42,947 bases of DNA from Candidatus Hermodarchaeum yapensis (GTDB taxonomy: Archaea > Asgardarchaeota > Hermodarchaeia > Hermodarchaeales > Hermodarchaeaceae). Under the pieces are notes generated by a model. It did no database searches. It was not told the DNA's origin and saw only the letters and a list, made by a program, of their open reading frames with translations. The number at the start of each line of letters is the position of its first letter. Within the stretch, counting starts at the first letter, position 1. A program made the position numbers and the translations under genes. Positions 5,513 through 23,022 of the stretch are shown here, one piece after another. The stretch is from NCBI GenBank assembly GCA_016840405.1, contig JAEOSK010000023.1, positions 1-42,947 on the forward strand. Reading direction: 5' to 3'.

Positions 5513-6721
5513 TTAAATTGGTTCTTCGATGAAACACTCCCGCGCATCTTCACCGAAGTATCGATCAAACAGCCATTCGAGTGAACCGCCAACTGCAGTC
5601 CAATACATTTGAGCAAATGCTTTCTTCATCAGTAGGTTTCGTCGAGTTGGTTTAGCATCTTTAGCAGCTTTGTCATAAGTTGAGATGACAAACAGGGCTT
5701 TACCATATCCAACATCCATGGGACAATGAGTGCGTCCCGTAAATTTACATCGTTCTCCAGTTTGTCTGATATCTGCGATGATGTTCCGGGCAACTACGAC
5801 GGCTTCAAGGTGCGCAGTAACTCCAGACTTAGATGTTCGTAAATCAGCCACATCACCAATGGCATACACGTTTTTTTGACCGTTGACTAGCAATGTGTAT
5901 TTATCTGTTGGAATCCAACCATCTTCATCCCCAATTTTAGAATCAATAATTGCTTGAGGAGCTTTATGAGGGGGAACTACAAACATGGCTTCGAATTCTA
6001 AATCTGTGCCTTCCAAAGAGTAAATTATCTTTTTTTCAGAATCAACTCGGTCGATGTTGAAGAATGGATGGATAATAATTCCCCGTTCTTTGAAATGGCG
6101 CTCGATAGTATTACTGATTGTCGGATCAGGATAAGGTCGAGATATCGGTGTAATGAAATGAATCTCGACATTATCTTTTAATTTCCTTTTCTTGAAAAAT
6201 TCCTCGAGAAGAAAAGCCGCTTCAACGGGCGCTGGAGGGCACTTATGAGGAAATGCACTAACACCTACTACAACTTTGCCCTTCCTGATTTCTTGGATTC
6301 GTTCCCAAACTTTCAAAGCATTTTCCTGCGATGAGTGAAAATCCAAATTTGCTTCATCAAACCCAAGAATTTCATCCCGAGCAATTTTCGACCCTACTGC
6401 AATAATAAGATCATCGTAAATGTACGTCTTGTTAGATTCCGTTATCACCTTATTATTTGTGAAATTAATTTTAGTGACCCTATCAATGCTGAAGTTAATT
6501 CGCTTGTGAAGCAATTTCTTTTCCGGTCGCACAATCTTTTCTGGTTTCATCCCCTTGAAACTTGTATACAATAGATTTGGTTGAAAAACATGGTTTCCAT
6601 CTTCATCAAGCAATGTGATTTCCACATCACCCTTCATAATCTCAGCCCCGAGTTCACGAGCTAAAAGATTAGCTACTAGAGTTCCAGCTGTTCCTCCACC
6701 TAAAACGAGAATTCGTCGCAT
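5513..6721 (-). CDS. Sulfide:quinone oxidoreductase-like FAD-dependent oxidoreductase
   Basis: GGGTAG, HVFQP, KCPPAPVE (catalytic Cys), AIGDVA-SKSG and C-terminal FTGRTHCP Cys; directly downstream of tusA. Confidence 0.7.
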   Translation of the reverse strand: MRRILVLGGGTAGTLVANLLARELGAEIMKGDVEITLLDEDGNHVFQPNLLYTSFKGMKPEKIVRPEKKLLHKRINFSIDRVTKINFTNNKVITESNKTYIYDDLIIAVGSKIARDEILGFDEANLDFHSSQENALKVWERIQEIRKGKVVVGVSAFPHKCPPAPVEAAFLLEEFFKKRKLKDNVEIHFITPISRPYPDPTISNTIERHFKERGIIIHPFFNIDRVDSEKKIIYSLEGTDLEFEAMFVVPPHKAPQAIIDSKIGDEDGWIPTDKYTLLVNGQKNVYAIGDVADLRTSKSGVTAHLEAVVVARNIIADIRQTGERCKFTGRTHCPMDVGYGKALFVISTYDKAAKDAKPTRRNLLMKKAFAQMYWTAVGGSLEWLFDRYFGEDARECFIEEPI

Positions 6722-6731
6722 TGTTCGGCAC

Positions 6732-6977
6732 CTATTGTTTCTTCGCGGTGATTTTTACCGATGCCCGAATGACTCCTGCATTCTCCTCGAGGCCAATGAG
6801 TTCATTCTTGGTCGCCCGAACCCATGCGTTGATATCTGAGGTAAAAGCAGAATCTGTAGCCAAGATATCTAAAATATCGCCATTCTGAGCTTTTCTATAC
6901 GCTCGCGCTACTTCTGTTATTGGACCAGGACAAGCCATTCCACGGCAATCAACGAGTATAGTTCGGGGTTCAGTCAT
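6732..6977 (-). CDS. tusA: TusA/SirA-family sulfur carrier
   Basis: VDCRGMACPGP (CPxP) motif, about 81 aa; ATG at 6977 follows a GGTGG SD-like element. Confidence 0.85.
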   Translation of the reverse strand: MTEPRTILVDCRGMACPGPITEVARAYRKAQNGDILDILATDSAFTSDINAWVRATKNELIGLEENAGVIRASVKITAKKQ

Positions 6978-7116
6978 CTTTTTCCACCAATTTTTCTGTG
7001 CCCGCATCAGAAATTCTCATATAACAACTTTCTCCACTTGCATTATTGGAATTTTTCTCATATAATTAAACGGGGAAAACCATTTTTCACCTCGAATGCT
7101 CGAAAGAAATCGCGAA

Positions 7117-7884
7117 TCAATTGAACAGAGTATTATAAAAAGTAATGAGAAGAAATCCGAGTAAAACTATGCCTAGCATAAATGGGATTAGTAACATCGT
7201 CCAAAACGCAAAGCCGGACCAAAAGGTTAGTGTAAAAAATAAACTAATCGCAACTGTAATCGGTATCTTTGGAAAATCTTTGATTTCCATTTTTAATGAA
7301 ATCACCAAAACCGTAGAAACACCAAAACCAGTAAAAAACCAACCAGCAAAATTGGATAACGGCACTCCATAATAGAATCTTGGAGTTATCCATATCTAAA
7401 TACCAAGGTAAACAAGAATCGGATCGATTATGAAATCAATTATTACAAGAAGGAACGCACTGAGGAGAATGATTTTCCAAGGCTTCTGTAAATACTGAGT
7501 TACTATTGTCACTGTTCCCAAGACAAGTGGAAAAAAGGCAAAAGGGACTGCAAATGGAACTACCCCTAGAATCTTAATTCCAAGTAAATCAGAGTAAAAA
7601 AAATGCCCATAAGGAAACCCCGTTAAAACTCCCATCCCCTCGATGAATAAAGTAAGTATTACGAGAGTTGAAATAATCACAGATGAGTTTTTTGCACCTG
7701 CCTATTAGTAGAAAAAGTGCAAAGAGGGTGGAGCTACAATAACCACAATAGAGTTGAATAAAACCAAGGGAACCATGACTGGAAGAAAAAAGAAGAAATA
7801 GCTTATTACATATGACCCAAGAATGAATAAACCAAACCGAAAAATGATCGGTGTGAAGAATAGCTTTCTTGTTAATGTTGTAAT
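7117..7884 (-). pseudogene. cruF: CruF-family carotenoid hydratase (bisanhydrobacterioruberin hydratase), interrupted
   Basis: Three track ORFs (7705-7965, 7396-7680, 7117-7365) share one frame. Joined, they give IEGMGVLTGFPYGHFFYSDLLGIKILGVVP, DFIIDP and YYGVPLSNFAGW. In-frame stops are TAA 7705-7707, TAG 7702-7704 and TAG 7396-7398. An ATT at 7882-7884 overlaps the lyeJ stop where a coupled ATG would sit. Confidence 0.85.
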
Positions 7885-8744
7885 TAGAGTATCACTATTT
7901 TTGGTATGGTAATTGTGAAGAAGAGAATTAATCCGAAAATCGCGTTCCAGTAGGGAAATAGCCAATAAATCCTCTCAAGATTAGCACTTCGTCGAAGCAA
8001 GAGGTAGAATGGAATAGCGGGATAAACGAACATTAGTACACTCCAAGGAGGATTCCATGGTACAATGAACACAAGGATAATTGCAAATATAAGCCAGAAT
8101 GTAAAGCAGAGAATGAGAGAGGGAATCAAATTAATTAGAACTGCAGTTGTTGTAACATTTGCTCGTTTATCTGCTTCGATGTCTGGAACTGCTGAGAAAA
8201 GGTGCATGGCTGAGGTCCACATAAAAGCAGCAAAAAGTGGAAGAATCGGTGGAATAAATAATTGTAGTTGGTAGAAGGCGAGAATTGCTGGGATGACATA
8301 GAGGAAATTTGACATAAAGTCAAGGAATGGACGAGCCTTGAACCGAATAGGTTTGGCACTATACAAGAAGGAAAGTATCAAGAAGATGACAAAGAGAAGT
8401 CGGGCTATGTTATCCGGTTGAAAAACCATGAGAATAAGTCCATAAACGAAAGCGATGATAATTAACGATATCAGGTTGCGTCTATCTTTCGTTGTCACTC
8501 GATATTCTTTATCATCCTTTTTCGGGTTGAAAATATCAGTATCTTCATCATAGTAATCATTAACACCATAAAGGAAGATATTCGCAGGGAACATGAAAAA
8601 GAAAAGATGGAATGCAAAGAACGGTGTAAGAAATTGACCAACTGTGGTCAACCCGATAACGAAGCCAATAAGATAAGTTCCACCAAGATATAGCCAAAAC
8701 CGTGGACGAGAGATCCGAAAAGCAAGGCGAGTAATACTACTCAA
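7884..8744 (-). CDS. lyeJ: Lycopene elongase/hydratase (UbiA-family prenyltransferase, LyeJ/CrtEb type)
   Basis: ISRPRFWLYLGG, YGVNDYYDEDTD-NPKK, YSAKPIRFKARPFLD and AMHLFSAVPDIEAD motifs; lies between crtD and cruF as in haloarchaea. Confidence 0.85.
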   Translation of the reverse strand: MSSITRLAFRISRPRFWLYLGGTYLIGFVIGLTTVGQFLTPFFAFHLFFFMFPANIFLYGVNDYYDEDTDIFNPKKDDKEYRVTTKDRRNLISLIIIAFVYGLILMVFQPDNIARLLFVIFLILSFLYSAKPIRFKARPFLDFMSNFLYVIPAILAFYQLQLFIPPILPLFAAFMWTSAMHLFSAVPDIEADKRANVTTTAVLINLIPSLILCFTFWLIFAIILVFIVPWNPPWSVLMFVYPAIPFYLLLRRSANLERIYWLFPYWNAIFGLILFFTITIPKIVIL

Positions 8745-8754
8745 TATTTTTTCC

Positions 8755-10233
8755 TCATGAACTATTTTCTTTGGCTATTTGATCTGCAACAATTTGTGAA
8801 GATACAAGAGCCATTGGAACTCCAATTCCTGGATGAGTGTATTGTCCCGTGTAATAGAGGTTTTTCACCTTCTTACTTTTATGGCGTGGTCGAAAGAAGG
8901 CGGATTGACGAAATGTATGGGTAAGCCCCACAGCTGTGCCTTTGTAGGCATGATAATCATTGGCAAAATCGTTCAAAGCGAAGATGCGTTTAACGGTGAT
9001 TGAATCTTGAAACGATTCTCCAATTGATTCCTCCATGTGTGTGATGATTTTGGTGAAGTATTTTTCTCGAATCTGTGGTGTATCTTCAATTCCCGGAGAA
9101 ATAGGGACAGTGACAAAAATATTCTCTTTACCTTTCGGTGCCACAGACGAATCGTATCGTGAGGGACAGCAGACATAATAAGCTGGTTCGTCAGGCCATG
9201 CGGGTTGATCAAAGATTTGGTTGAAATGTTTCACCCAGTCATATTCGAGAAAGCAATTATGGTGAGTTAATTGTGGTAATTTCTGGTCGACTCCAAGATA
9301 CAGCACAAAGGCTGAAGGCGCAATGATTTTCTTTTCCCAGTATTTTGCTGAGTAAGTTTGATATTTTTTATCAAGCAATTCCATTTCAGAAAACGGATAA
9401 TCCGCATTGACAATTACTATATCGGCATCAGTTACTCCCTCAGAGGTCTGCACATGGTGTGCTTGACGATTCTTTACATCAATATGAGTGGCATCAACTT
9501 CAAATTGAAAAACCGCACCATAAGATTCGGCAAGTTTCATAATTCCTTCAGGAATCATCCCAAGGCCACCTCGAGGGTACCAGACACCAAGATTGTAATC
9601 GATATGTGAAATAATCGAGTAGAGTGCAGGAGTATTGGTTGGGTTTCCTCCGAGGAATACAATAGGATATTCTAGGATTTTTCGGGCACGATCACTTTTG
9701 AAGAATTTACGGACCCATTTGTCAATGTTACTTAAGATGTGCAATTTTTGTCCAGCTTTTATGAGCTTAGGGCTAAACATGGACCAGATACTGCTCAAAT
9801 CCTCGTACATAACACCCTCCATCATGAAAGTGTAGGTTTCTTCAGCTTTGTCCAAATATTTCTGTAATTTTTCGCCACCTTTTTCTTCAAAGCTATCAAA
9901 AGTCTTCAAATTGGGTTCTAAGTCAGCTGAAATATCGACAACATCATCTGCTCCAAAAAAGATACGATAATTTGGATCGAGTCGAATTAATTCATAATAA
10001 TCAGCTACTGATTTTTCAAATTGAGCAAAGAAATTTTCAAAGATTTCTGGCATAAGATACCAAGAGGGGCCCATATCAAAGACAAACCCCTCGGTTTTCC
10101 AAACTCGGGCACGTCCTCCAACTTCAGTGTTTCTTTCAATCACTTCTACATCGAAGCCATTTTTCGCAAGAAGCGCAGCAGCAGCTAGACCGCCTACACC
10201 AGCACCAATAATCAGAACTTTTTGGTTCTTCAT
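8755..10233 (-). CDS. crtD: Phytoene desaturase-family protein, carotenoid 3,4-desaturase by context
   Basis: GAGVGG, FDMGPSWYLMP and C-terminal GQYTHPGIGVPMALVS motifs; first gene of the crtD-lyeJ-cruF order. Confidence 0.7.
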   Translation of the reverse strand: MKNQKVLIIGAGVGGLAAAALLAKNGFDVEVIERNTEVGGRARVWKTEGFVFDMGPSWYLMPEIFENFFAQFEKSVADYYELIRLDPNYRIFFGADDVVDISADLEPNLKTFDSFEEKGGEKLQKYLDKAEETYTFMMEGVMYEDLSSIWSMFSPKLIKAGQKLHILSNIDKWVRKFFKSDRARKILEYPIVFLGGNPTNTPALYSIISHIDYNLGVWYPRGGLGMIPEGIMKLAESYGAVFQFEVDATHIDVKNRQAHHVQTSEGVTDADIVIVNADYPFSEMELLDKKYQTYSAKYWEKKIIAPSAFVLYLGVDQKLPQLTHHNCFLEYDWVKHFNQIFDQPAWPDEPAYYVCCPSRYDSSVAPKGKENIFVTVPISPGIEDTPQIREKYFTKIITHMEESIGESFQDSITVKRIFALNDFANDYHAYKGTAVGLTHTFRQSAFFRPRHKSKKVKNLYYTGQYTHPGIGVPMALVSSQIVADQIAKENSS

Positions 10234-10323
10234 GGAAAATTTTCCCCTAAAGAGACTCAATTTTTCATTTCTTGATATTTAATAATATGGTATAAATTCA
10301 TACAACGATTTTTTAATTAGTCA

Positions 10324-10343
10324 TGTCTTATAATAATAAGACA
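10324..10343. promoter_or_regulatory. Perfect 8-bp inverted repeat (TGTCTTAT-aata-ATAAGACA) in the divergent crtD/crtB promoter region; candidate operator
   Basis: Read directly; lies roughly midway between the two starts in an AT-rich spacer. Confidence 0.45.
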
Positions 10344-10436: not shown

Positions 10437-11375
10437 TTGCTTAGGGGAGAGAATTACCATTTAGAAGTTATCCCTACAACAATTCGTCCCAAGGAAAAGT
10501 TAAGCCAGGGTGAATTAAAACGGGCTTATAGTTATTGTTTGGGTTTATTTGGTAAACATGCAAAATCCTTTCATTTTGCTTCACGGTATCTTGAAACTGA
10601 CCAACGAAGAAGTATAGCTGCCCTTTATGCCTTTTGCCGTTTAACAGATGATTTTGTAGACGAAGTAGACATGAAGCCGAGCCAAATTGACACTGAGCTT
10701 AATGTTCTGACTGATATTGTACTTCGTTTAAGTGAAGGGGAATCCTTCAATCACCCGATTTTCCAAGCATTTGGCGATACATTAGTGAAATATCAAATTC
10801 CTGTTCAATATCTCAATGAATTAATTGAAGGCGTGAGGATGGATGTTCACCAAAAAGAACTCCAAAACCAACAAGAACTCGATCTTTACTGTTTCCGAGT
10901 TGCGTCCACTGTTGGTTTATCGATGTGCCACATATGGCGGTCTATTCACCCCGAGACACTCCAACGGGCATCCGAACTTGGCATAGCGATGCAGCAAACA
11001 AATATTCTTCGAGATATTGCTGAGGACTATGATAAGGGGCGAATCTACATACCCTTGGAAACCCGTAAAAAGTTCAGGGTGTCAGTTGCAGATTTCGAAG
11101 CCAGGCAAATTACACCGAATTTCCGATTTTTATTAAAACATGAGATTGCCAAGGCAAGAGCCAACTATGCCAGTGCAGAAATCGGTATGATGGACCTTCC
11201 TTCTGCAGCGGCTTTTACCATCAAGGTTGCATCAAGAGTATATGCAAATATCTTGAATCAAATCGAGAAGATGGACTATCAAGTGTTCAAGGCGCGAGCA
11301 GTGGTTCCTAAATGGAAGAAACTCTGGATAGCCTATCAGTGTCGCCGTGAGTACAAACGCGACCTTCGAAAATAA
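10437..11375 (+). CDS. crtB: Phytoene synthase
   Basis: HAKSFHFAS, ALYAFCRLTDDFVD, YCFRVASTVG and TNILRDIAEDYDKGRIYIP motifs; TTG start uncertain. Confidence 0.9.
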   Translation: MLRGENYHLEVIPTTIRPKEKLSQGELKRAYSYCLGLFGKHAKSFHFASRYLETDQRRSIAALYAFCRLTDDFVDEVDMKPSQIDTELNVLTDIVLRLSEGESFNHPIFQAFGDTLVKYQIPVQYLNELIEGVRMDVHQKELQNQQELDLYCFRVASTVGLSMCHIWRSIHPETLQRASELGIAMQQTNILRDIAEDYDKGRIYIPLETRKKFRVSVADFEARQITPNFRFLLKHEIAKARANYASAEIGMMDLPSAAAFTIKVASRVYANILNQIEKMDYQVFKARAVVPKWKKLWIAYQCRREYKRDLRK

Positions 11376-11426: not shown

Positions 11427-12935
11427 GTGACCCCAAAAAACACACAAAACATTGTCATAATAGGCGGAGGTTTTGGTGGCTTATCAGCAGCAGTACGATT
11501 GCAAGCCAATGGTTACAATGTAACAGTATTGGAAAAACGTAACCAGCTTGGAGGTCGAGCTGGACTCATTGAACGAAAAGGTTTCCGATTTGACACAGGC
11601 CCTACGATAATTACTCCACCTTCCGTAGTAGAAGATATCTTTCTCGAAGCAGGACGCGATCCCCAGGACTATGTTGAACTAGTTTCAATTCATCCGCACT
11701 ATCGCCTCCATTATGCCGATGGAACACACTTCGATATTGGCACTTTCGAAGAGGTTGCACAGCAAATTCAACAACTGAGTCCTAATGATTTGAAAGGGTA
11801 TCAGAAATGGCTCGAAATTCTTGAACCCATCTATAAACTCGGCTTCGAAAAATTCGCAAACACACCCTTTGATAGCCTTTGGAGTATGGCCAAGATTGTG
11901 CCATCAGCTATTCGTCTGAAATCTTACAAAAGTGTCTATGGACTTGTCGCTAGTTATATGAAAAACGAGAAGCTTCGTATGGCATTTTCATTTGTTCCCC
12001 TCTTTATTGGCGGAAATCCCTTCACGACAACAAGTGTTTATTCACTGATTGCCTATCTCGAAAATAAGTATGGTATGCTTTGGGTTCGGGGTGGAACCCA
12101 TCGATTCGTTGAAGCCTTAGAGAAGTTATACTTAGAACTTGGGGGAACTATCAAACTAAATTCAGAAGTGACTAAAATTGAGGTCGATGAGAAAGACCGG
12201 AGGGTCACTGGTGTATTCACCGCAAGTGGAGATCACTTTCCCACTAACATTGTTATTAGTAACGCCGATGTTGCCATGACCTACATGAAACTCATTGATA
12301 AACGATTTCGTCGGAAAAACACAGATCGCCGATTCAAAAAGGCTAATTTTAGTATGAGTTTATTCATGGTTTATTTTGGAACTAAAAAGAAATATCCAGA
12401 TATGCCGCACCACAACGTCATTTTTGGCCCTCGATATAAAGAACTTATTAAAGACATCTTTGACCGTCATATCCTCCCTGATGATTTTTCCATTTATTTG
12501 CATGTACCAACAAGGACAGATCCAGAACTTGCACCTCCTGGTTGTGAAACCTTTTATGCATGTGTTCCGGTCACGCATCAAGACTCTGGAATCGATTGGG
12601 AAGAAATGAAAGAACCGTTTAAGAATCGAATTTTGCAGTACCTGAATGACCATTATCTTCCTGATTTATTAAATAACCTTGAGGTATGTGAGGTCTTTAC
12701 CCCCCAAGATTTTGAAAAAGAGCTGAACGCTTACAAAGGAAATGCATTCCAATTACAGCCTCTTATGACTCAATCTGGATGGTTCCGACCACACAATCGT
12801 TCACGTGATATAAAGGGCTTATACATAGTTGGTGCTGGAACTCATCCAGGTGCGGGAGTGCCGAGTGTCTTACTTAGTGGAAAAATTACTTCAGAGATCA
12901 TTTTCAGCGACTATGGGAAACCATCAATTGAATAA
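11427..12935 (+). CDS. crtI: Phytoene desaturase
   Basis: IGGGFGGL, FDTGPTIIT, GGNPF, QSGWFRPHN and VGAGTHPGAGVPSV motifs. Confidence 0.9.
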   Translation: MTPKNTQNIVIIGGGFGGLSAAVRLQANGYNVTVLEKRNQLGGRAGLIERKGFRFDTGPTIITPPSVVEDIFLEAGRDPQDYVELVSIHPHYRLHYADGTHFDIGTFEEVAQQIQQLSPNDLKGYQKWLEILEPIYKLGFEKFANTPFDSLWSMAKIVPSAIRLKSYKSVYGLVASYMKNEKLRMAFSFVPLFIGGNPFTTTSVYSLIAYLENKYGMLWVRGGTHRFVEALEKLYLELGGTIKLNSEVTKIEVDEKDRRVTGVFTASGDHFPTNIVISNADVAMTYMKLIDKRFRRKNTDRRFKKANFSMSLFMVYFGTKKKYPDMPHHNVIFGPRYKELIKDIFDRHILPDDFSIYLHVPTRTDPELAPPGCETFYACVPVTHQDSGIDWEEMKEPFKNRILQYLNDHYLPDLLNNLEVCEVFTPQDFEKELNAYKGNAFQLQPLMTQSGWFRPHNRSRDIKGLYIVGAGTHPGAGVPSVLLSGKITSEIIFSDYGKPSIE

Positions 12936-12976: not shown

Positions 12977-13213
12977 TTACTTGAAAAGTTCTGTTGCTAG
13001 ATCCAAAGCGGATCTCGCATCAGGAGCATAACCATCAGCCCCAATCTTCTTCCAAAGCTCTTGATCAATCATAAATGCCCTACGGCCAACGACTATTTTC
13101 AAATCTTTAATATTGTCATTCTTTCTTATCGTAGTGATGACTTTCTCTACTTCAACGACATGCAGAGGAAAAGTTACTAAAAGGGCTAACAGATTAGCAT
13201 TCTGTTTTACTTG
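12977..13213 (-). pseudogene. C-terminal remnant of a cobalamin (B12)-binding domain protein
   Basis: Manual translation: QVKQNANLLALLVTFPLHVVEVEKVITTIRKNDNIKDLKIVVGRRAFMIDQELWKKIGADGYAPDARSALDLATELFK*. An upstream TAG at 13214-13216 closes the frame; no full-length start and no ExH/DxH ligand motif. Confidence 0.75.
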
Positions 13214-13304: not shown

Positions 13305-13778
13305 CTATGGTGATCCCAATGCGATAGTTTCAATTATCTCCTTTAATTTCACAATAACGAGAGGTTTCTCTGGAGAAAGAGAAGCCCAGCTATCTGTGGT
13401 TTTCAATCCATGAGCTGCAAGGAAGTTTGTGGATAATTTTTTTGCACCAACTTCAGACATTTGCCTAATCACATTAGTTCTTTCCGCAGAATCCGTTACT
13501 ATTTCCAATTCTCCACGGAATACAACAAAGCAATATTGATGTAAATCAGGTTGGTAGGATTCGATTTCAACGGCTACACGATTATCTTCCTCGATGAGCT
13601 TCATTTTCTTCCCGTAGCGTGTGAAATGAAAATAGAGGTTTCCATTGATGTAGGCATACTGAAATGGAGCCATATACGGGTATTCTTCTCCCCTGAAAGC
13701 AATTCGACAAATTACCTGTTGTTTGAGTAGCTCTTCAACTCTTTGTCGCTCCATTTTAGGCAATTTAACAATAGACAT
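13305..13778 (-). CDS. Pyridoxamine 5'-phosphate oxidase-like (NimA-type) flavin-binding protein
   Basis: CRIAF-YPYMAP-LYFH-GKKM-RVAVEI split-barrel pattern; GAGGTG upstream of ATG 13778. Confidence 0.8.
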   Translation of the reverse strand: MSIVKLPKMERQRVEELLKQQVICRIAFRGEEYPYMAPFQYAYINGNLYFHFTRYGKKMKLIEEDNRVAVEIESYQPDLHQYCFVVFRGELEIVTDSAERTNVIRQMSEVGAKKLSTNFLAAHGLKTTDSWASLSPEKPLVIVKLKEIIETIALGSP

Positions 13779-13852
13779 TAGAAACACCTCTTACATACCT
13801 GAAGAAGCCTTCCCAAATAAATGCAATACGGATTCTTAACTGGGTGGTGAAC

Positions 13853-15244
13853 ATGGAAAGAGCCTATGAAAACTCATTATTTATTTTTCGACGTGATCTA
13901 CGACTCGAGGACAATTTAGGGTTGATTAATGCACTCACCAACTCTTCGGAAGTTGTTCCATGTTTTTTCTTCGACCATAGACTACTAGCTACCAAGCAAC
14001 AGCATCATAATGCTATCCAATTTATGGTTGAAGCGCTGAAAGATTTGGATGATCAATTGACTCAGAAGAATGGCCAACTTTTTTGTTTTTCCGACTTTCC
14101 TGAAAAAAAAGTTCCAAGTTTAATTAGTTCACTTCATATTGATGCTATCTTTGTGAATCGTGATTATACCCCATTTAGTCAGCGACGAGATTCCCGGTTG
14201 AGAAAAATATGCGACCAGGCAAGTGTAGACTTTCACCAATTTGCTGATTTGCTTCTTAATGAGCCTGAAATGGTTCATAAATCGAATGCTGAACCGTATA
14301 AGGTCTTTACACCATTTTTCCAAAAAGCGGAGCAGATTCCTGTAGCGTCTTCGAAGGCGAATCCTCATCGGAATTATTCATCGCCAAAGATTTTGCGAAA
14401 AAAGATTCTCACCTCAGTTCTTAAGAAATATCAATTTCAGACCAACGAAAGGTTGCTTTTTCAAGGCAATAGATCTTCCTGCCTAAGAATACTCGAGGAT
14501 TTGAGTCCTTTTCGAGATTATGAAACCAAGCGTGATCTTCCCTTTGAGCATGGAACCACTCAACTATCACCGTATCTAAAATTTGGACTTTGTTCAATTC
14601 GAGAGGTCCATGCAGCTGTTTCGAACCAGTTAGGAGCAACACATCCTTTAATTCGACAACTATACTGGCGTGATTTCTATACTCATATTGCCTTTCATTA
14701 TTCCTATGTGTTTAAACGGGCATTCAAAGCCCGATACGAAAATCTTCAATGGAACAAGAGTAAAACACTCTTTCAAGCCTGGTGTGAAGGAAAAACTGGA
14801 TTTCCGATTGTAGATGCTGGGATGCGTCAACTCAATACGACTGGCTGGATGCATAATCGGGTTCGTATGATTGTCGCCTCATTTCTGACCAAGGATCTTC
14901 ACATAGACTGGCGTTCAGGAGAAAGGTATTTTGCTAAACATTTAGTCGACTATGATCCTGCAGTGAATAATGGAAATTGGCAATGGGCCGCTTCAACAGG
15001 TGTTGATGCACAGCCTTACTTCCGAATCTTCAATCCCTGGCGCCAACAAGAAAAATATGATTCCAACTGTGAATACATTAAACATTGGATTCCCGAATTA
15101 TCACAAGTCGAACCCAAGATAATTCACCGATGGTTTAAGCCAACAAAGTGGGATTCCCAACTCAATTACCCTAAACCCCTTGTTGATCATAAGCAAGAAA
15201 GCCAATTTTCAAAGGAACTTTTCGCGAAAACTTACTCAACTTAA
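13853..15244 (+). CDS. phrB: Deoxyribodipyrimidine (CPD) photolyase
   Basis: FRRDLRLEDN, LSPYLKFG, QLYWRDFY, GKTGFPIVDAGMRQL, WMHNRVRM, DYDPAVNNGNWQW and YFRIFNP motifs; Trp triad positions present. Confidence 0.92.
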   Translation: MERAYENSLFIFRRDLRLEDNLGLINALTNSSEVVPCFFFDHRLLATKQQHHNAIQFMVEALKDLDDQLTQKNGQLFCFSDFPEKKVPSLISSLHIDAIFVNRDYTPFSQRRDSRLRKICDQASVDFHQFADLLLNEPEMVHKSNAEPYKVFTPFFQKAEQIPVASSKANPHRNYSSPKILRKKILTSVLKKYQFQTNERLLFQGNRSSCLRILEDLSPFRDYETKRDLPFEHGTTQLSPYLKFGLCSIREVHAAVSNQLGATHPLIRQLYWRDFYTHIAFHYSYVFKRAFKARYENLQWNKSKTLFQAWCEGKTGFPIVDAGMRQLNTTGWMHNRVRMIVASFLTKDLHIDWRSGERYFAKHLVDYDPAVNNGNWQWAASTGVDAQPYFRIFNPWRQQEKYDSNCEYIKHWIPELSQVEPKIIHRWFKPTKWDSQLNYPKPLVDHKQESQFSKELFAKTYST

Positions 15245-15703
15245 TTACTGTGTGTACTTACTGATGGGTCCCCAATTTTCAATACAGTCATTTTCTGGTT
15301 TCTTTGTACAAAAATGAATTAAAACAGGTGATTCATCCAATTCTTGTTCTTTGTCAAAGAATTCACGATCCCCATAACGGATAGCTTCTAAAACGAGGTC
15401 TAATTCCCGGCGAAAAATAGCTTCTCGAAAGCTTCGAGAGCCAAGTCCGCGAACAACCTGACAATAAACATGAAGAGCAGTACCATCTTCATCTATAGTC
15501 AATTCAGCAAGAACCTCATCCCGCATGAGTCGGGTGTACAAACCCTTGATTTGTTTGTAGTCGTAATCAGAGCCTATAGTGAGAAAAAGATTTCCCGTCC
15601 TATCTGAATGAGTAAGGGTATATCGACGGGGGAATTTTTGATTATTGGGTGATAGTGAATCGAGATAGCGAACTTTCAGTTTTTCAGGTCTCAATCTTGC
15701 CAT
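15245..15703 (-). CDS. Staygreen (SGR) family protein, Mg-dechelatase homolog
   Basis: PRRYTLTHSDRTGNLFLTIG, MRDEVLAE, LHVYC, IFRRELDLVLEAIRYGD and ENWG motifs. Confidence 0.9.
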   Translation of the reverse strand: MARLRPEKLKVRYLDSLSPNNQKFPRRYTLTHSDRTGNLFLTIGSDYDYKQIKGLYTRLMRDEVLAELTIDEDGTALHVYCQVVRGLGSRSFREAIFRRELDLVLEAIRYGDREFFDKEQELDESPVLIHFCTKKPENDCIENWGPISKYTQ

Positions 15704-15728: not shown

Positions 15729-16184
15729 TTAGAGTTTTAATTCATCAATCTTTGATATAATTTCATCAACGTGCCCTGGGACTCGAACCTTTGGCCATAC
15801 AAAGCGAATTATTCCTTCACGATCTATGAGAAACGTTGATCGTTGGGCAGAACCGGTTTCAGGTTTAAGCACATCGTAAAGTTTGACTACTTTTAGTTCC
15901 TTATCTGCGATTAGAGGAAACTGTAATGCATTTTTCGCTTTGAAACCAGATTGTCGTTTGACACTATCGGTGCTTACCCCAACGACTTTCACACCCATTC
16001 CTGTTAGACGAATCATATTATCACGAAAAGAGCATGCTTCCTTTGTACAACTTGGAGTACCCGCACGTGGATAGAAGTATAACACAATGATATTTCCACG
16101 AAGATCACTTAGTGTTAGTTCTGATCCATCATCGATAGGAGCGGTAAAATCAGGGGCATTTTGTCCTATTTCTGGTAAAGCCAT
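15729..16184 (-). CDS. bcp: Peroxiredoxin, BCP/PrxQ family
   Basis: VLYFYPRAGTPSCTKEACSFRD (CxxxxC) and RSTFLID motifs. Confidence 0.9.
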   Translation of the reverse strand: MALPEIGQNAPDFTAPIDDGSELTLSDLRGNIIVLYFYPRAGTPSCTKEACSFRDNMIRLTGMGVKVVGVSTDSVKRQSGFKAKNALQFPLIADKELKVVKLYDVLKPETGSAQRSTFLIDREGIIRFVWPKVRVPGHVDEIISKIDELKL

Positions 16185-16282
16185 TTGTATCACCTCATTT
16201 AATTTTCAAGCCAATCTATGGTATTTAGAAGAGACAAGAAATGAGGGAAAAAACCCCTCATTTGATTGTAATTACTAGAATC

Positions 16283-16684
16283 CTAATTGGGCAAAATCAC
16301 TTTATCAATGACGTGGATCACGCCGTTCTCAGCTTCAATGTCAGCTTTGATAACGTGGGCATCATCGACTTTAACACCGTCCGAGGTGTCAATATGGATA
16401 CTTTGGCCCTGGACCGTTTTTATTTCGCCTTTGCTGATGACGTCTTCGGCCTTGTATTTTCCTGCTACAACGTGGTAGAGGAGAATCGCTTTCAGCTTTT
16501 CCGTGTCTTTTAGAAGAGCTTCGACCGTACCCTCTGGGAGCGCATTAAAGGCATCATCAGTTGGGGCGAACACAGTAAAGGGTCCATCACTCGACAAGGT
16601 TTCGGCTAATCCAGCCGCGGTAGCAGCCGTTAATAGAGTATTAAACTGGCCTGCATCTTTTGCAATTTTTACAATATTTTCCAT
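16283..16684 (-). CDS. Single-domain fasciclin (FAS1) protein without signal peptide
   Basis: [19 protein letters not shown] and [11 protein letters not shown] motifs. Confidence 0.92.
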
Positions 16685-16929: not shown

Positions 16930-17568
16930 TCATGCCTTTTTTACCCGGAAAAGGATGATAAGTCCGTAGATGAGTTTTGTGATTACATCTAAAGCAGCGT
17001 AGAGTATTGCGGCGATGAATGTCGTAATGAGACCGAACCCTGTTGGTGCAAGGAGGAATACTAGTGGGAAGAGTGACCAGAAGATTATAATGAACCACAT
17101 AAGTTGTGAATTCATTCCTTCTCTTGGAACACCTTTGAATAAGGTGATGAGTAGAGCGATATAGGCAATGGAACTGAAAGCGAAAAACCACCACCGTTCG
17201 ATGCCTGTAATAAAAGCGGCCAGAAATCCACAGAACATCACGAGCATCGTCAGGATAGGAATTTTCGCAAGGGCGACTGGTTGTGTATGTCTCAGAACAA
17301 CTGCAACCGACACGGTTAGTAAACTACAGCTAGCCATGTAAAAGAGCCATCGGCTCCAATAAATTGGTTCACCAAAAATTGATGTGACTGTCAGGAAACC
17401 AAGTGCCATCAGAACATACGAAATTGTGGTAACGAAGGCAACTATGATATCAACGAACGAAAGGAATTCATCGGCTCCAGATCGAAACGAAAGCAATGAA
17501 AACATTATTGAAGAAATGCCAAAGATTGCAGCCATAATCCAAAAGACGAGTAATTCTTCTCCAGCCAT
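16930..17568 (-). CDS. Microbial rhodopsin, schizorhodopsin-like
   Basis: 212 aa with seven hydrophobic segments. Helix C YWSRWLFYMASCSLL, helix F WSLFPLVFLLAPTGFG, helix G LDVITK with retinal Lys198 and Asp194. Confidence 0.88.
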   Translation of the reverse strand: MAGEELLVFWIMAAIFGISSIMFSLLSFRSGADEFLSFVDIIVAFVTTISYVLMALGFLTVTSIFGEPIYWSRWLFYMASCSLLTVSVAVVLRHTQPVALAKIPILTMLVMFCGFLAAFITGIERWWFFAFSSIAYIALLITLFKGVPREGMNSQLMWFIIIFWSLFPLVFLLAPTGFGLITTFIAAILYAALDVITKLIYGLIILFRVKKA

Positions 17569-17668: not shown

Positions 17669-18133
17669 TTAGGACTCGTCTTCAAATTTCGAGATTGCGT
17701 TTAAGACTGCAGTCTCTTTTTCCTCTGAAAACACTCCAGTGTCTCGCCAGAGGATATTGCCATCACAATCGACTAAGAAGAGGTAGATCGTGTCTTCAGT
17801 GGGAATATCTAATGCTTTGGTAAATTCACTTTTGTCAATATAGAGAGTAATTGTACGAGCTCGCATTACTTTGTCATGTATTCCGCCTCTCATACCACTG
17901 TCAATTATCCATTGAGAAAGCACATTGAATTTCCGAAGCGTAGGTAATTCATAGAATTGGATTTGCGGATGTTCTGTCACGAGTGTTTGGAGAAATGGTA
18001 CCCAAGTTTCAATGGGTCGTACTTGCCATTGTTGAAATGCTACTACGAGAAAATTAAGTTTGCCTTCTAATTTTTCTGGGATGATGTGGGAAACACCATT
18101 TAGGTCTTTTCCAGCGACTTGGGGAAATTTCAT
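17669..18133 (-). CDS. Conserved thioredoxin-like fold protein lacking CxxC (ATP10-like)
   Basis: FPxxxGxDLNG start, LVVAF strand, YELP, IDSGMRGGI and YLFLVDxDGNILWR end. Confidence 0.55.
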   Translation of the reverse strand: MKFPQVAGKDLNGVSHIIPEKLEGKLNFLVVAFQQWQVRPIETWVPFLQTLVTEHPQIQFYELPTLRKFNVLSQWIIDSGMRGGIHDKVMRARTITLYIDKSEFTKALDIPTEDTIYLFLVDCDGNILWRDTGVFSEEKETAVLNAISKFEDES

Positions 18134-21552: not shown

Positions 21553-22455
21553 GTGATAAAAGGATTCGCAGTCTTCCGTATGGACCCTAAAATTGGACCA
21601 CAGCACGTCTATCGAAGTGACAGTATCGGTGAGGTCACCCATCAGGAAGTACTCGCAATTTTTGCAACTCACAACTTATTCCGTGAAGGTTTTCGTGGTG
21701 TCCATGTCAGTAACCGAACATGGGCAACTTACGTCTTTCCACCCTGGATTGTTGCACTTCTCCTTGGACCTGATGAGCCCATCGGCCCGCTCAGAGAGCC
21801 CATGAAAAAAACCTTGCACTCAAATAAACTGGGTGACAACCCGAAAGCCGAAGACTGGAAGAACCTTCATCGTGAGCTCATTGTAGAAATTCAAAGTTCA
21901 CCAGTTGCAGACTTTCTCACGTCGAAAAAAACAACTGATTTTCTGAAAGAGATGATTGACCTAGAAATCAATTTCTTTGACCCTCAGTTCAACTTTGAAA
22001 TTGGCACAACGTATCCTGCAGCAGATCATTTGACTGGACTCGATAGCTACGATACCCGACTCTTTCTTGAGAAACTGACTCTTGCAGGGATCTTCACGAG
22101 CGAGCCGGTAGTGGGCGTTACCCATTGTCCGATTTGTCTTGGATTTAAAGTCGTTAGTCGCCTTGCCTGTCCCAAGTGCAGCGTTACCGCCTTGGATGTC
22201 GTTCGATTTCCTGCTTCACCTGACTCAGACGAGGCGGAGAGTAGTGCTTCAAAGAAGCCCATGGAACTTTTCTATTCATGTATGACCTGTCAGCACACAA
22301 CTAGTGAACCCGTCGTTACCCTTCTTTGCACTGAATGTGGTTCACAATTTCAACCTGATGAAGCAGCCTATCGCAATATGGATAGACTCGTTCTAAATCG
22401 ACCTATCGCAGAATCCCTCATCAAGAAAGTTGAAGGAACAACTCCAAAAAAATGA
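21553..22455 (+). CDS. Longin-like N-terminal domain fused to a TackOD1-like multi-Zn-ribbon domain
   Basis: N-terminal FAVFRMDPKIGP hairpin with apparent bb-a-bbb-aa order; C-terminal FLEKLxxAG helix plus four CxxC pairs (CPIC, CPKC, CMTC, CTEC). Confidence 0.55.
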   Translation: MIKGFAVFRMDPKIGPQHVYRSDSIGEVTHQEVLAIFATHNLFREGFRGVHVSNRTWATYVFPPWIVALLLGPDEPIGPLREPMKKTLHSNKLGDNPKAEDWKNLHRELIVEIQSSPVADFLTSKKTTDFLKEMIDLEINFFDPQFNFEIGTTYPAADHLTGLDSYDTRLFLEKLTLAGIFTSEPVVGVTHCPICLGFKVVSRLACPKCSVTALDVVRFPASPDSDEAESSASKKPMELFYSCMTCQHTTSEPVVTLLCTECGSQFQPDEAAYRNMDRLVLNRPIAESLIKKVEGTTPKK

Positions 22456-22470
22456 ACTTGTGATGGGATC

Positions 22471-23022
22471 CTAAATTTTGTCCCAGGGTTTTCCGGACTT
22501 TTCGAAAGATTCCCAGATTTTCTCAGCAAGTGAAGTGAATACATCACTTACGTGAATATCGTCCTTGGCACTGCTTTCAAGGAAAATCATATTTTCCGCT
22601 TTAGATCGTTTTTCACCTTCTTCCTTGGTGACTACTCGTTTTTCTTCTAAATCTGTTTTACAGGCTACAAGAAGGAGGGGAATCCCCTCACAGCGTTGAT
22701 AGACTTGCTGGATCCAATGATCAATCCTGTCAAATGATTGTCGGTGTGTGATATCATAGGCAATAACAGCCCCAGCCGCACCCTCAAAGTATAGTCCGCG
22801 GATGAAGTCAAATCGCTCTTGACCTCCGGTATCATAGATGACAAGTTTGATATTGAATTTCTCTTTCAGTGTGATTTGTTTTGTGAAAAAGTCTACACCT
22901 AGTGTAAAGAGGTAGCTTTCATCAAATTGGCCAGTGGTGTATCGGCGTGCAAGGGAAGTCTTTCCAACTCCTGCATCGCCCACAACTATGACTTTATAGA
23001 CGACTTCGGCGATTTCTTCCAT
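22471..23022 (-). CDS. Rab-like small GTPase (Ras superfamily)
   Basis: G1 GDAGVGKT, TLGVDF, G3 DTGGQERF, YFEGA, YDIT, G4 CKTD and G5 SAK; no C-terminal Cys. Confidence 0.92.
   Translation of the reverse strand: MEEIAEVVYKVIVVGDAGVGKTSLARRYTTGQFDESYLFTLGVDFFTKQITLKEKFNIKLVIYDTGGQERFDFIRGLYFEGAAGAVIAYDITHRQSFDRIDHWIQQVYQRCEGIPLLLVACKTDLEEKRVVTKEEGEKRSKAENMIFLESSAKDDIHVSDVFTSLAEKIWESFEKSGKPWDKI

Follow-up and report, generated by a model that had tools for sequence, protein, structure and literature searches.

An in vitro activity of prokaryotic homologues of the Staygreen (SGR) proteins has been established since 2019. The locus described here raises the question of what such a protein does in an archaeon, where its gene lies among genes for a rhodopsin, a photolyase, carotenoid synthesis and a peroxiredoxin. 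It is situated in a 42,947-nucleotide stretch of Candidatus Hermodarchaeum yapensis (GenBank assembly GCA_016840405.1, contig JAEOSK010000023.1), which was analysed as a whole and which we refer to as the window. Archaeal and bacterial SGR homologues as such were already known, as Obata et al. (2019) is cited in PMC8531759, PMC11006732 and a bioRxiv preprint.

The SGR protein and its host

We regard it as virtually certain that the open reading frame belongs to the Staygreen family. It matches the Pfam Staygreen profile PF12638 at positions 2-147 of 147 (E 7.5e-45, 152.8 bits at a cut-off of 27) and, over residues 2-150, the SGR from an Anaerolineae bacterium in PDB entry 7y5y (E 1e-47, 52% identity); a search of NCBIfam gave no model matching the protein. 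Its AF2 model (pLDDT 81.5) is closest to 7y5y_A in Foldseek (E 1.7e-20, TM 0.89), the second-best PDB match having a TM of only 0.37. No second domain, signal peptide or transmembrane segment was found in the protein, i.e. the first-pass annotation was right in describing a complete stand-alone SGR domain.

The Anaerolineae protein, AbSGR-h (7Y5Y; PMC8531759, PMC11006732), is the closest characterised counterpart, and the two proteins are alike in length, single-domain build, sequence and fold, both of them coming from non-photosynthetic hosts. Up to about residue 85 the window SGR and AbSGR-h can be numbered alike; hence, the motifs T-H32-S-D34 and R61-D62, which had been listed as retained, are found at exactly those numbers (T31-H32-S33-D34 and R61-D62). 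In the alignment all three catalytic residues of AbSGR-h, H32, D34 and D62, occupy identical positions, as do R26, Y28 and T29, and T36, E63, R93 (R95 in AbSGR-h) and D112 (D114 in AbSGR-h) are retained as well. Thus, the residues at which mutation causes AbSGR-h to unfold or to lose its activity (R26, Y28, T29, D34, D62 and D114; PMC8531759) are without exception found in the window protein. The proteins differ in that the host of the window SGR is archaeal (Asgard), that W55, predicted to line the pigment cavity of AbSGR-h, is aligned with L55, and that the window gene is coupled to a peroxiredoxin gene in a schizorhodopsin block. In its predicted fold and its aligned catalytic residues the window SGR agrees with this characterised Mg-dechelatase homologue.

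Removal of Mg from chlorins and porphyrins is the sole activity demonstrated for the SGR family (PMC8531759, PMC11006732), and AbSGR-h removes Mg in vitro from Chl a, Chl b, Chl c, chlorophyllide and protochlorophyllide (PMC11006732). The window SGR is present as a single copy in the host assembly (2.7 Mb, 86% complete), and dN/dS values of 0.10-0.16 against seven orthologues identify it as a working gene. The purifying selection on its catalytic residues points to an enzyme.

That the host is an Asgard archaeon is apparent from the closest SGR proteins (72-87% identity), which belong to metagenome-assembled genomes under the names Hermod-, Thor-, Hod- or Promethearchaeota, and from two further products of the window, a Ras-family GTPase (E 1e-50) and a TackOD1 protein. 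Neither ALAD (porphobilinogen synthase) nor PBG deaminase was found in its genome (86% complete), and none of the 19 genomes of the host family gave a match for ALAD, whereas 11 of 14 control genomes did. The genomes thus show a lineage without tetrapyrrole synthesis, i.e. a predicted tetrapyrrole auxotroph, which renders an endogenous tetrapyrrole substrate of SGR unlikely; any such substrate would have to come from outside the cell. A PaO-domain oxygenase (PF08417) was likewise not found in the host genome at its 86% completeness, which argues against a plant-like breakdown pathway. This sets the host apart from plants, whose chlorophyll a Mg-dechelatases SGR1, SGR2 and SGRL belong to the same Pfam family and have the same catalytic residues, but are longer and plastid-targeted, act on the chlorophyll of their own cells and feed the PAO/phyllobilin pathway, whereas we find neither chlorophyll or tetrapyrrole synthesis nor PAO in the host of the window SGR.

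The light island and its variants in the genus

The genes around SGR (Table 1) follow the order prenyltransferase, CrtD/CrtID, CrtB, CrtI, PNPOx-like protein, photolyase, SGR, Bcp, FAS1 and rhodopsin, the crtB, crtI, crtD, prenyltransferase and photolyase genes being clustered within 8 kb. According to tblastn against the whole assembly rhodopsin, photolyase, crtB, crtI and SGR are each present in a single copy, and all of them lie together in one 10-kb stretch, which is therefore the one light island of this genome and holds its sole rhodopsin and its sole photolyase. The carotenoid/rhodopsin cluster in an archaeon that had been noticed at first sight is thus confirmed, with crt, photolyase and rhodopsin genes in an Asgard host.

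Table 1. Features in and around the light island, in coordinates of the window
Feature	Position	Strand	Evidence or remark
CruF-like (Caroten_synth) gene, three in-frame stops	7117..7883	-	tblastn 59% identity over 220 aa to intact L017 gene
UbiA-family prenyltransferase	7884..8744	-	PF01040; NF009516 290 bits (cut-off 205)
CrtID/CrtD-type carotenoid desaturase	8755..10260	-	NF058655 681 bits (cut-off 640)
Phytoene synthase CrtB	10437..11375	+	PF00494 E 1.2e-67
Phytoene desaturase CrtI	11427..12935	+	Pfam
77-aa relic of B12-binding (CarH-like sensor module) gene	12980..13210	-	tblastn 77% identity over 77/364 aa
PNPOx-like split-barrel flavoprotein (Pyridox_ox_2), divergent from photolyase	13305..13787	-	Pfam
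Class I CPD photolyase, convergent on SGR	13844..15244	+	PF03441 E 3.9e-82, PF00875 E 7.6e-41
Staygreen-family gene (Mg-dechelatase homologue)	15245..15703	-	intact, ATG start, 152 aa; PF12638, 7y5y, AF2 model
PrxQ/Bcp-type peroxiredoxin (CxxxxC)	15729..16193	-	AhpC-TSA E 4.5e-38; closest NCBIfam models PrxQ, thiol peroxidase
G+C-rich hairpin (10-pair stem) then T-rich tract, 3' of FAS1 gene	16239..16263	-	consensus scan only
Single FAS1 (fasciclin) domain protein, without signal peptide	16283..16684	-	PF02469 E 1e-41
Schizorhodopsin-like microbial rhodopsin	16930..17568	-	PF01036 E 3.7e-22; best PDB match schizorhodopsin 4 (SzR4), 7e4g, E 2.7e-32
Conserved 154-aa protein, weak ATP10 match	17669..18133	-	always directly upstream of rhodopsin

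On the minus strand rhodopsin, FAS1, Bcp and SGR form a co-directional block with gaps of 245, 89 and 25 nt, SGR being the last gene. Bcp, the likely true start of which is the ATG at 16184, ends 25 nt upstream of the SGR start, and the shortness of this gap makes co-transcription of the two genes probable. The hairpin and T-rich tract that follow the FAS1 gene may possibly act as terminator or attenuator ahead of the Bcp-SGR pair, which would mark this pair as the tightest of the block. On its other side SGR faces the photolyase gene, which ends one base before the SGR stop codon, i.e. the two genes are convergent. The first-pass annotation had correctly placed SGR downstream of bcp and convergent on the photolyase gene, but it missed that the tightest linkage of SGR is to the peroxiredoxin rather than to either of these.

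The FAS1 protein has PDB relatives in Fdp and CupS and, more weakly, in the carotenoid-binding AstaP (E 1e-9), and its gene always lies between rhodopsin and Bcp in those genus loci that carry the block. Within the crt cluster, the prenyltransferase may be lycopene-elongase-like, as its place suggests, and the CruF-like gene is probably a pseudogene, given its in-frame stops. The reading frame of the B12-binding relic is full of stops, and an intact gene (349-364 aa) is present in related genomes and loci (L012, L016, G009 and G010), its product comprising B12-binding_2 and B12-binding domains without a recognisable DNA-binding domain. A search of the intergenic regions of the island for operators or palindromes revealed no shared motif, the matches being A+T-rich and attributable to chance; one perfect palindrome (10324-10343) occurs just once in the window and in none of the 115 loci that were fetched. 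Peptide ABC importers are encoded next door in the window.

The block recurs. In orthologous loci the order rhodopsin-FAS1-Bcp-SGR is maintained with SGR identities of 64-87% and a Bcp-SGR spacing of 25-31 nt, and in one of these loci (L013) PolX and Fpg genes lie beside the four genes. Four states can be distinguished in the genus. The full arrangement is found in the host genome (G000) and in G010, G014 and G008, and contig fragments of G006 and G013 hold its SGR-proximal part. In G007 and G001 the arrangement lacks SGR, the SGR copy of G001 being relocated among unrelated genes with no light gene nearby. In G003, G012 and G009 the rhodopsin gene is directly convergent on the photolyase gene, FAS1, Bcp and SGR being absent from between them; SGR was not found anywhere in these three genomes, and G009 retains a 24-aa Bcp relic. 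Finally, G011 carries the four-gene block and the phr/crt genes on different contigs. As SGR was not found in 7 of the 14 other genomes of the genus, it is dispensable within the genus. Thus, the block is a unit, no other member of it is as easily spared as SGR, and the rhodopsin is independent of SGR.

Retinal supply was considered separately. A role of SGR in providing the retinal chromophore was dropped, since genus members retain the rhodopsin without SGR. In the search for genes of retinal supply the PF18916 lycopene cyclase was not found, and the search for PF15461 (beta-carotene dioxygenase) was uninformative, as the control genomes likewise gave no match.

The genus variants also bear on a nutritional role, in which SGR would start the breakdown of ingested chlorophyll for phytol, Mg or nitrogen. 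The predicted auxotrophy of the host and the neighbouring peptide importers would fit such a role, and a bioRxiv preprint on prokaryotic chlorophyll catabolism describes one Asgard genome with a full set of enzymes. However, no PaO-domain oxygenase was found in the host genome (86% complete), the block contains no esterase, the conserved neighbours are protective and repair genes instead of catabolic ones, and SGR is expendable in the genus, so that we consider chlorophyll catabolism for nutrition distinctly improbable.

Neighbourhoods of SGR genes across phyla

SGR relatives were sought by pattern matching in 185,579 species genomes, which gave at least 480 of them; the 80 best loci were retrieved together with flanks of up to 10 kb on either side. 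As the patterns derive from a narrow 11-sequence alignment (a 26-sequence alignment was too diverse), these 80 loci represent the nearest relatives of the window protein and not the family at large; their sources are Asgard, Bathyarchaeia, Hadarchaeota, Anaerolineae, Dehalococcoidia and Planctomycetota. The 1208 neighbouring open reading frames were clustered without prior labels, and the largest clusters were then named by Pfam. Among these best 80 of at least 480 loci the commonest neighbours are heliorhodopsin (HeR; 13), ABC ATPase (13), photolyase (12), Bcp (12) and DegV (12), followed by a TspO/MBR-like membrane protein (9), MFS (8), MsrB (7), UvdE (7) and crtB (6). The photolyases of the 80 loci are of two classes, class I and a PF00875-only class II, and genes for MsrA, CrtI, MerR-B12 CarH, a RudS-like desulfurase, an ABC-2 permease and a PNPOx-like protein recur beside SGR as well, the latter lying between SGR and a class II photolyase gene in Dehalococcoidia.

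Outside the clade of the window protein 26 of 73 loci contain heliorhodopsin, photolyase, UvdE, crtB/I or rhodopsin within 10 kb, and such light genes are present in 12 of the 27 outside loci that span at least 15 kb. We compared the co-location in 50 genomes with that expected from random placement at whole-genome copy numbers. Heliorhodopsin was observed in 9 SGR loci versus 0.21 expected, PF03441 photolyase in 4 versus 0.027 and TspO-like protein in 7 versus 0.20, i.e. enrichment is 35- to 150-fold, the corresponding Poisson P values overstating the evidence because related genomes are not independent. The enrichment is real despite this kinship, since the gene orders are many (HeR>SGR, SGR>HeR, TspO>SGR>MsrB, MFS>SGR, SGR>PNPOx<PHR and crtI>crtB>..SGR) and the links to light genes, seen in Asgard, Bathyarchaeia, Anaerolineae and Dehalococcoidia, are dispersed across the SGR tree. 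A lack of enrichment of light genes around SGR homologues had been named beforehand as a result that would speak against the first-pass reading; these counts go the other way. Co-occurrence of SGR and heliorhodopsin at the level of genomes (16/31 versus 13/120 in 151 Asgard genomes; 12/15 versus 5/10 within family f9) was set aside as main evidence, as it mostly tracks family membership.

About half of the SGR loci have no light gene within reach, the relocated copy in the same genus being one of them, and the linkage to the schizorhodopsin block amounts to one evolutionary event. One might thus suppose that SGR has no functional tie to its neighbours and that the context reflects chance or hitch-hiking. 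Yet, enrichments of this size in several phyla and gene orders, together with the independent recruitment of different peroxiredoxin paralogues and of two photolyase classes, already disfavour such an explanation, which we hold to be very improbable.

The peroxiredoxins are instructive in this respect. The Asgard SGR proteins form one supported clade on the SGR tree, and in a second sub-clade, labelled Thorarchaeota, a different peroxiredoxin paralogue is encoded just upstream of SGR, which is 36-38% identical to the window Bcp and 42-44% identical to the C67 paralogue of the host genome, the window Bcp being 70% identical to the C45 copy. A Bathyarchaeia SGR locus has a third peroxiredoxin type. 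Judged by these identities, peroxiredoxin recruitment beside SGR is independent between lineages, and the recruitment of different peroxiredoxins argues for a functional coupling of SGR to peroxide stress.

In heliorhodopsin partner operons, as in the window, SGR is part of a rhodopsin-headed, co-directional cluster among light-damage genes. SGR could be a soluble protein that acts as partner or effector of the rhodopsin beside it, which would be schizorhodopsin here and heliorhodopsin elsewhere, and the activity of SGR would be light-gated by protein-protein contact. HeR directly adjoins SGR in many Chloroflexota and in 7 Asgard genomes, and the host family, in which HeR was found neither in the host genome (tblastn; PF18761) nor in any of the other genomes (0/18), has SGR in a schizorhodopsin block instead. 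However, in this block SGR is separated from the schizorhodopsin-like gene by FAS1 and Bcp, there are genus members with a rhodopsin and no SGR and one with SGR away from the rhodopsin, and most SGR loci contain no rhodopsin. Moreover, schizorhodopsins are generally known as inward proton pumps, not sensors. We therefore judge a rhodopsin partner function improbable. A full-text literature search found no paper that links heliorhodopsin or rhodopsin with staygreen or dechelatase.

A non-enzymatic role had been suggested from the outset, namely that SGR regulates CrtB and thereby tunes carotenoid synthesis, as tomato SGR1 reportedly binds the phytoene synthase PSY1. The crtB and crtI genes are indeed less than 5 kb from SGR in the window, and three unrelated bacterial loci (L060, L063 and L094) have them immediately upstream of SGR. 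On the other hand, crtB is present in only 3 of the 73 outside loci, most SGR loci lack crt genes altogether, the block and the crt genes of G011 are on different contigs, and crt genes typically belong to light regulons in any case. Furthermore, the CruF gene of the cluster is a probable pseudogene while SGR is intact, and it is the catalytic residues of SGR that are under purifying selection. The suggestion thus gains no specific support from the loci, and we rate it as very improbable.

A probable role in light and photo-oxidative stress

That SGR serves in light stress is, in our view, highly probable. That it does so by removing Mg from chlorophyll-type pigments acquired from outside, i.e. 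as an enzyme of light and photo-oxidative stress, is a proposal for which belief and doubt are in balance, and we put forward chlorophyll-type pigments as its substrate tentatively, with slightly more doubt than belief. According to this proposal Bcp and SGR would be co-transcribed as part of the response to light and photo-oxidative stress. Chlorophyll-type pigments may enter the cell or its membrane from phototrophic neighbours or their debris, and SGR would strip the Mg from these acquired lipophilic Mg-chlorins, while the peroxiredoxin and the carotenoids would handle the peroxides and the singlet oxygen that the pigments generate in the light. Dechelation might conceivably also prepare the pigments for binding by a TspO-like protein or for export via MFS or ABC-2 transporters. 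The benefit of dechelation itself is the weak step of this mechanism, since removal of Mg alone does not end photosensitisation, pheophytin and pheophorbide being phototoxic as well. The first-pass annotation had argued for the detoxification of pigments from phototroph debris; the exogenous origin of the substrate agrees, indirectly, with the absence of ALAD from the 19 family genomes, whereas a detoxification by Mg removal would have to be reconciled with the sensitising free-base pigments and with the lack of a PAO-type enzyme.

The cavity exchange of W55 for Leu in the window SGR leaves room for a light-stress enzyme with another native substrate, e.g. another metallo-tetrapyrrole, a hydrophobic chromophore or a lipid-soluble photoproduct, chlorophyll Mg-dechelation being a side activity. 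Promiscuity has in fact been proposed by the authors of the bacterial work, as Obata et al. (2019) is cited in PMC8531759 and a bioRxiv preprint, for Mg-dechelation by the bacterial homologue. Moreover, DegV and PlsY, which relate to lipid handling, and MFS or ABC-2 exporters are frequent neighbours, and many host lineages are, judging by their names, anaerobic sediment taxa. Nevertheless, the only activity demonstrated for the family remains the one on chlorins and porphyrins (PMC8531759, PMC11006732), the catalytic H/D/D set is strictly retained, and the recurrent neighbours of the TspO-like family, which binds tetrapyrroles, point to tetrapyrroles. Hence, we consider another native substrate unlikely and prefer the removal of Mg from acquired chlorophyll-type pigments.

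The setting of SGR is a variant of the light-inducible photoprotection clusters, and its induction by light is predicted. In non-phototrophic bacteria CarH/LitR clusters comprise crt, photolyase and RudS-type genes under the control of an AdoCbl photoreceptor. The island of the window resembles them in combining crtB and crtI with a photolyase gene; moreover, the islands of its relatives contain a gene for a B12-binding sensor module, and a true MerR-B12 CarH as well as RudS-like genes occur in bacterial SGR loci. The archaeal B12 protein differs in having no MerR domain, and only the 77-aa relic of its gene is left in the window. To our knowledge, SGR, Bcp, FAS1 and rhodopsin are not among the known members of CarH/LitR clusters. 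What the window adds is the schizorhodopsin version of the cluster in a family without a heliorhodopsin match, the coupling to Bcp with its independent recruitment of paralogues, the auxotrophy of the family, the variants of the cassette, and counts of observed versus expected neighbours.

Taken together, their gene neighbourhoods tie the prokaryotic SGR homologues to the defence against light and photo-oxidative damage, which turns an orphan enzyme family into one with a testable light-defence hypothesis. The case is especially clean here, as the host family gives no sign of tetrapyrrole synthesis, SGR is coupled to a peroxiredoxin, and a single genus comprises both natural variants that have the FAS1-Bcp-SGR cassette and others from which it is missing. 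In more general terms, and this we regard as possible though rather doubtful, Staygreen homologues may be the missing enzymatic arm of the light-stress response in non-phototrophic prokaryotes, i.e. a Mg-dechelatase that would be expressed with rhodopsins, photolyases, carotenoid genes and peroxiredoxins and would disarm foreign chlorophyll-type pigments. The finding contributes to the view that some Asgard archaea inhabit lit niches rich in phototrophs, and, if the proposal is true, a tetrapyrrole-auxotrophic Asgard archaeon would regularly meet foreign chlorophyll in its lit habitats.

SGR and its neighbours in other lineages

Staygreen (SGR), the Mg-dechelatase homologue encoded in the window, differs from most of its orthologues at position 55, i.e. 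W55, which lines the predicted pigment cavity of the Anaerolineae homologue AbSGR-h and is kept in most orthologues, is replaced by leucine both in the window and in the orthologue of the related locus L017. The genes next to SGR vary between lineages. In Dehalococcoidia (L057, L069) SGR occurs together with a PNPOx-like flavoprotein and a photolyase, a counterpart of the window's PNPOx-photolyase-SGR trio with another gene order and a photolyase of the class II type. On a Thorarchaeota chromosome (CP070658; L021, 7713-10461) two genes of the URO-D family are followed by SGR after a gap of 38 nt, and no light genes are found near SGR at this locus. The URO-D family comprises uroporphyrinogen decarboxylases and corrinoid methyltransferases, and this arrangement is another tetrapyrrole-flavoured SGR context.

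The FAS1-Bcp-SGR cassette

FAS1 proteins include AstaP, a carotenoid carrier in photo-oxidative stress, and cyanobacterial CupS. The FAS1 protein of the window is cytoplasmic, consists of a single FAS1 domain and has an invariable position between the rhodopsin and the peroxiredoxin Bcp. It matches AstaP weakly (E 1e-9) and might serve as soluble carrier of carotenoid or retinal. Three other genomes of the genus (G003:C29, G012:C110 and G009:C38; loci L102-L104) do not contain the FAS1-Bcp-SGR cassette, their rhodopsin gene being directly convergent with the photolyase gene. As a Bcp fragment of 24 aa has been left behind in G009, the cassette was deleted at this locus.

The 154-aa protein is encoded immediately upstream of the schizorhodopsin in all genus members examined. 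Ras-family small GTPase and TackOD1-type genes are commonly taken as Asgard signatures, and the pair in the window is kept in the closest relative (L012).

Features of the window
Feature	Position	Strand	Remark
SQR-like flavoprotein (sulfide:quinone-reductase-like) + TusA sulfur carrier	5513-7007	-	
CruF-like gene (Caroten_synth, C50-carotenoid hydratase family)	7117-7883	-	59% identity to relative's intact gene
B12-binding protein relic	12980-13210	-	77 aa; remnant of 349-364-aa protein
FAS1 protein	16283-16684	-	
Conserved 154-aa protein	17669-18133	-	weak ATP10 match only
Ras-family small GTPase, adjoining TackOD1-domain protein	21553-23022		GTPase, E 1e-50

A gene relic and a probable pseudogene in the host genome

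The CruF-like gene, which closes the carotenoid cluster, is interrupted by three in-frame stops (one double, one single) and is probably a pseudogene, or else reflects an assembly error. The SQR-like flavoprotein and TusA are flanked by this cluster and by lipid genes (GGR, polyprenyl synthase, UbiA), an order also present in L012.

In related genomes the full-length B12-binding protein comprises an N-terminal part, a B12-binding_2 and a B12-binding domain, i.e. a CarH-like sensor module, and its intact gene adjoins the PNPOx-like gene on the crtI side. A candidate sensor of light in the island seems to have been lost from the host genome.
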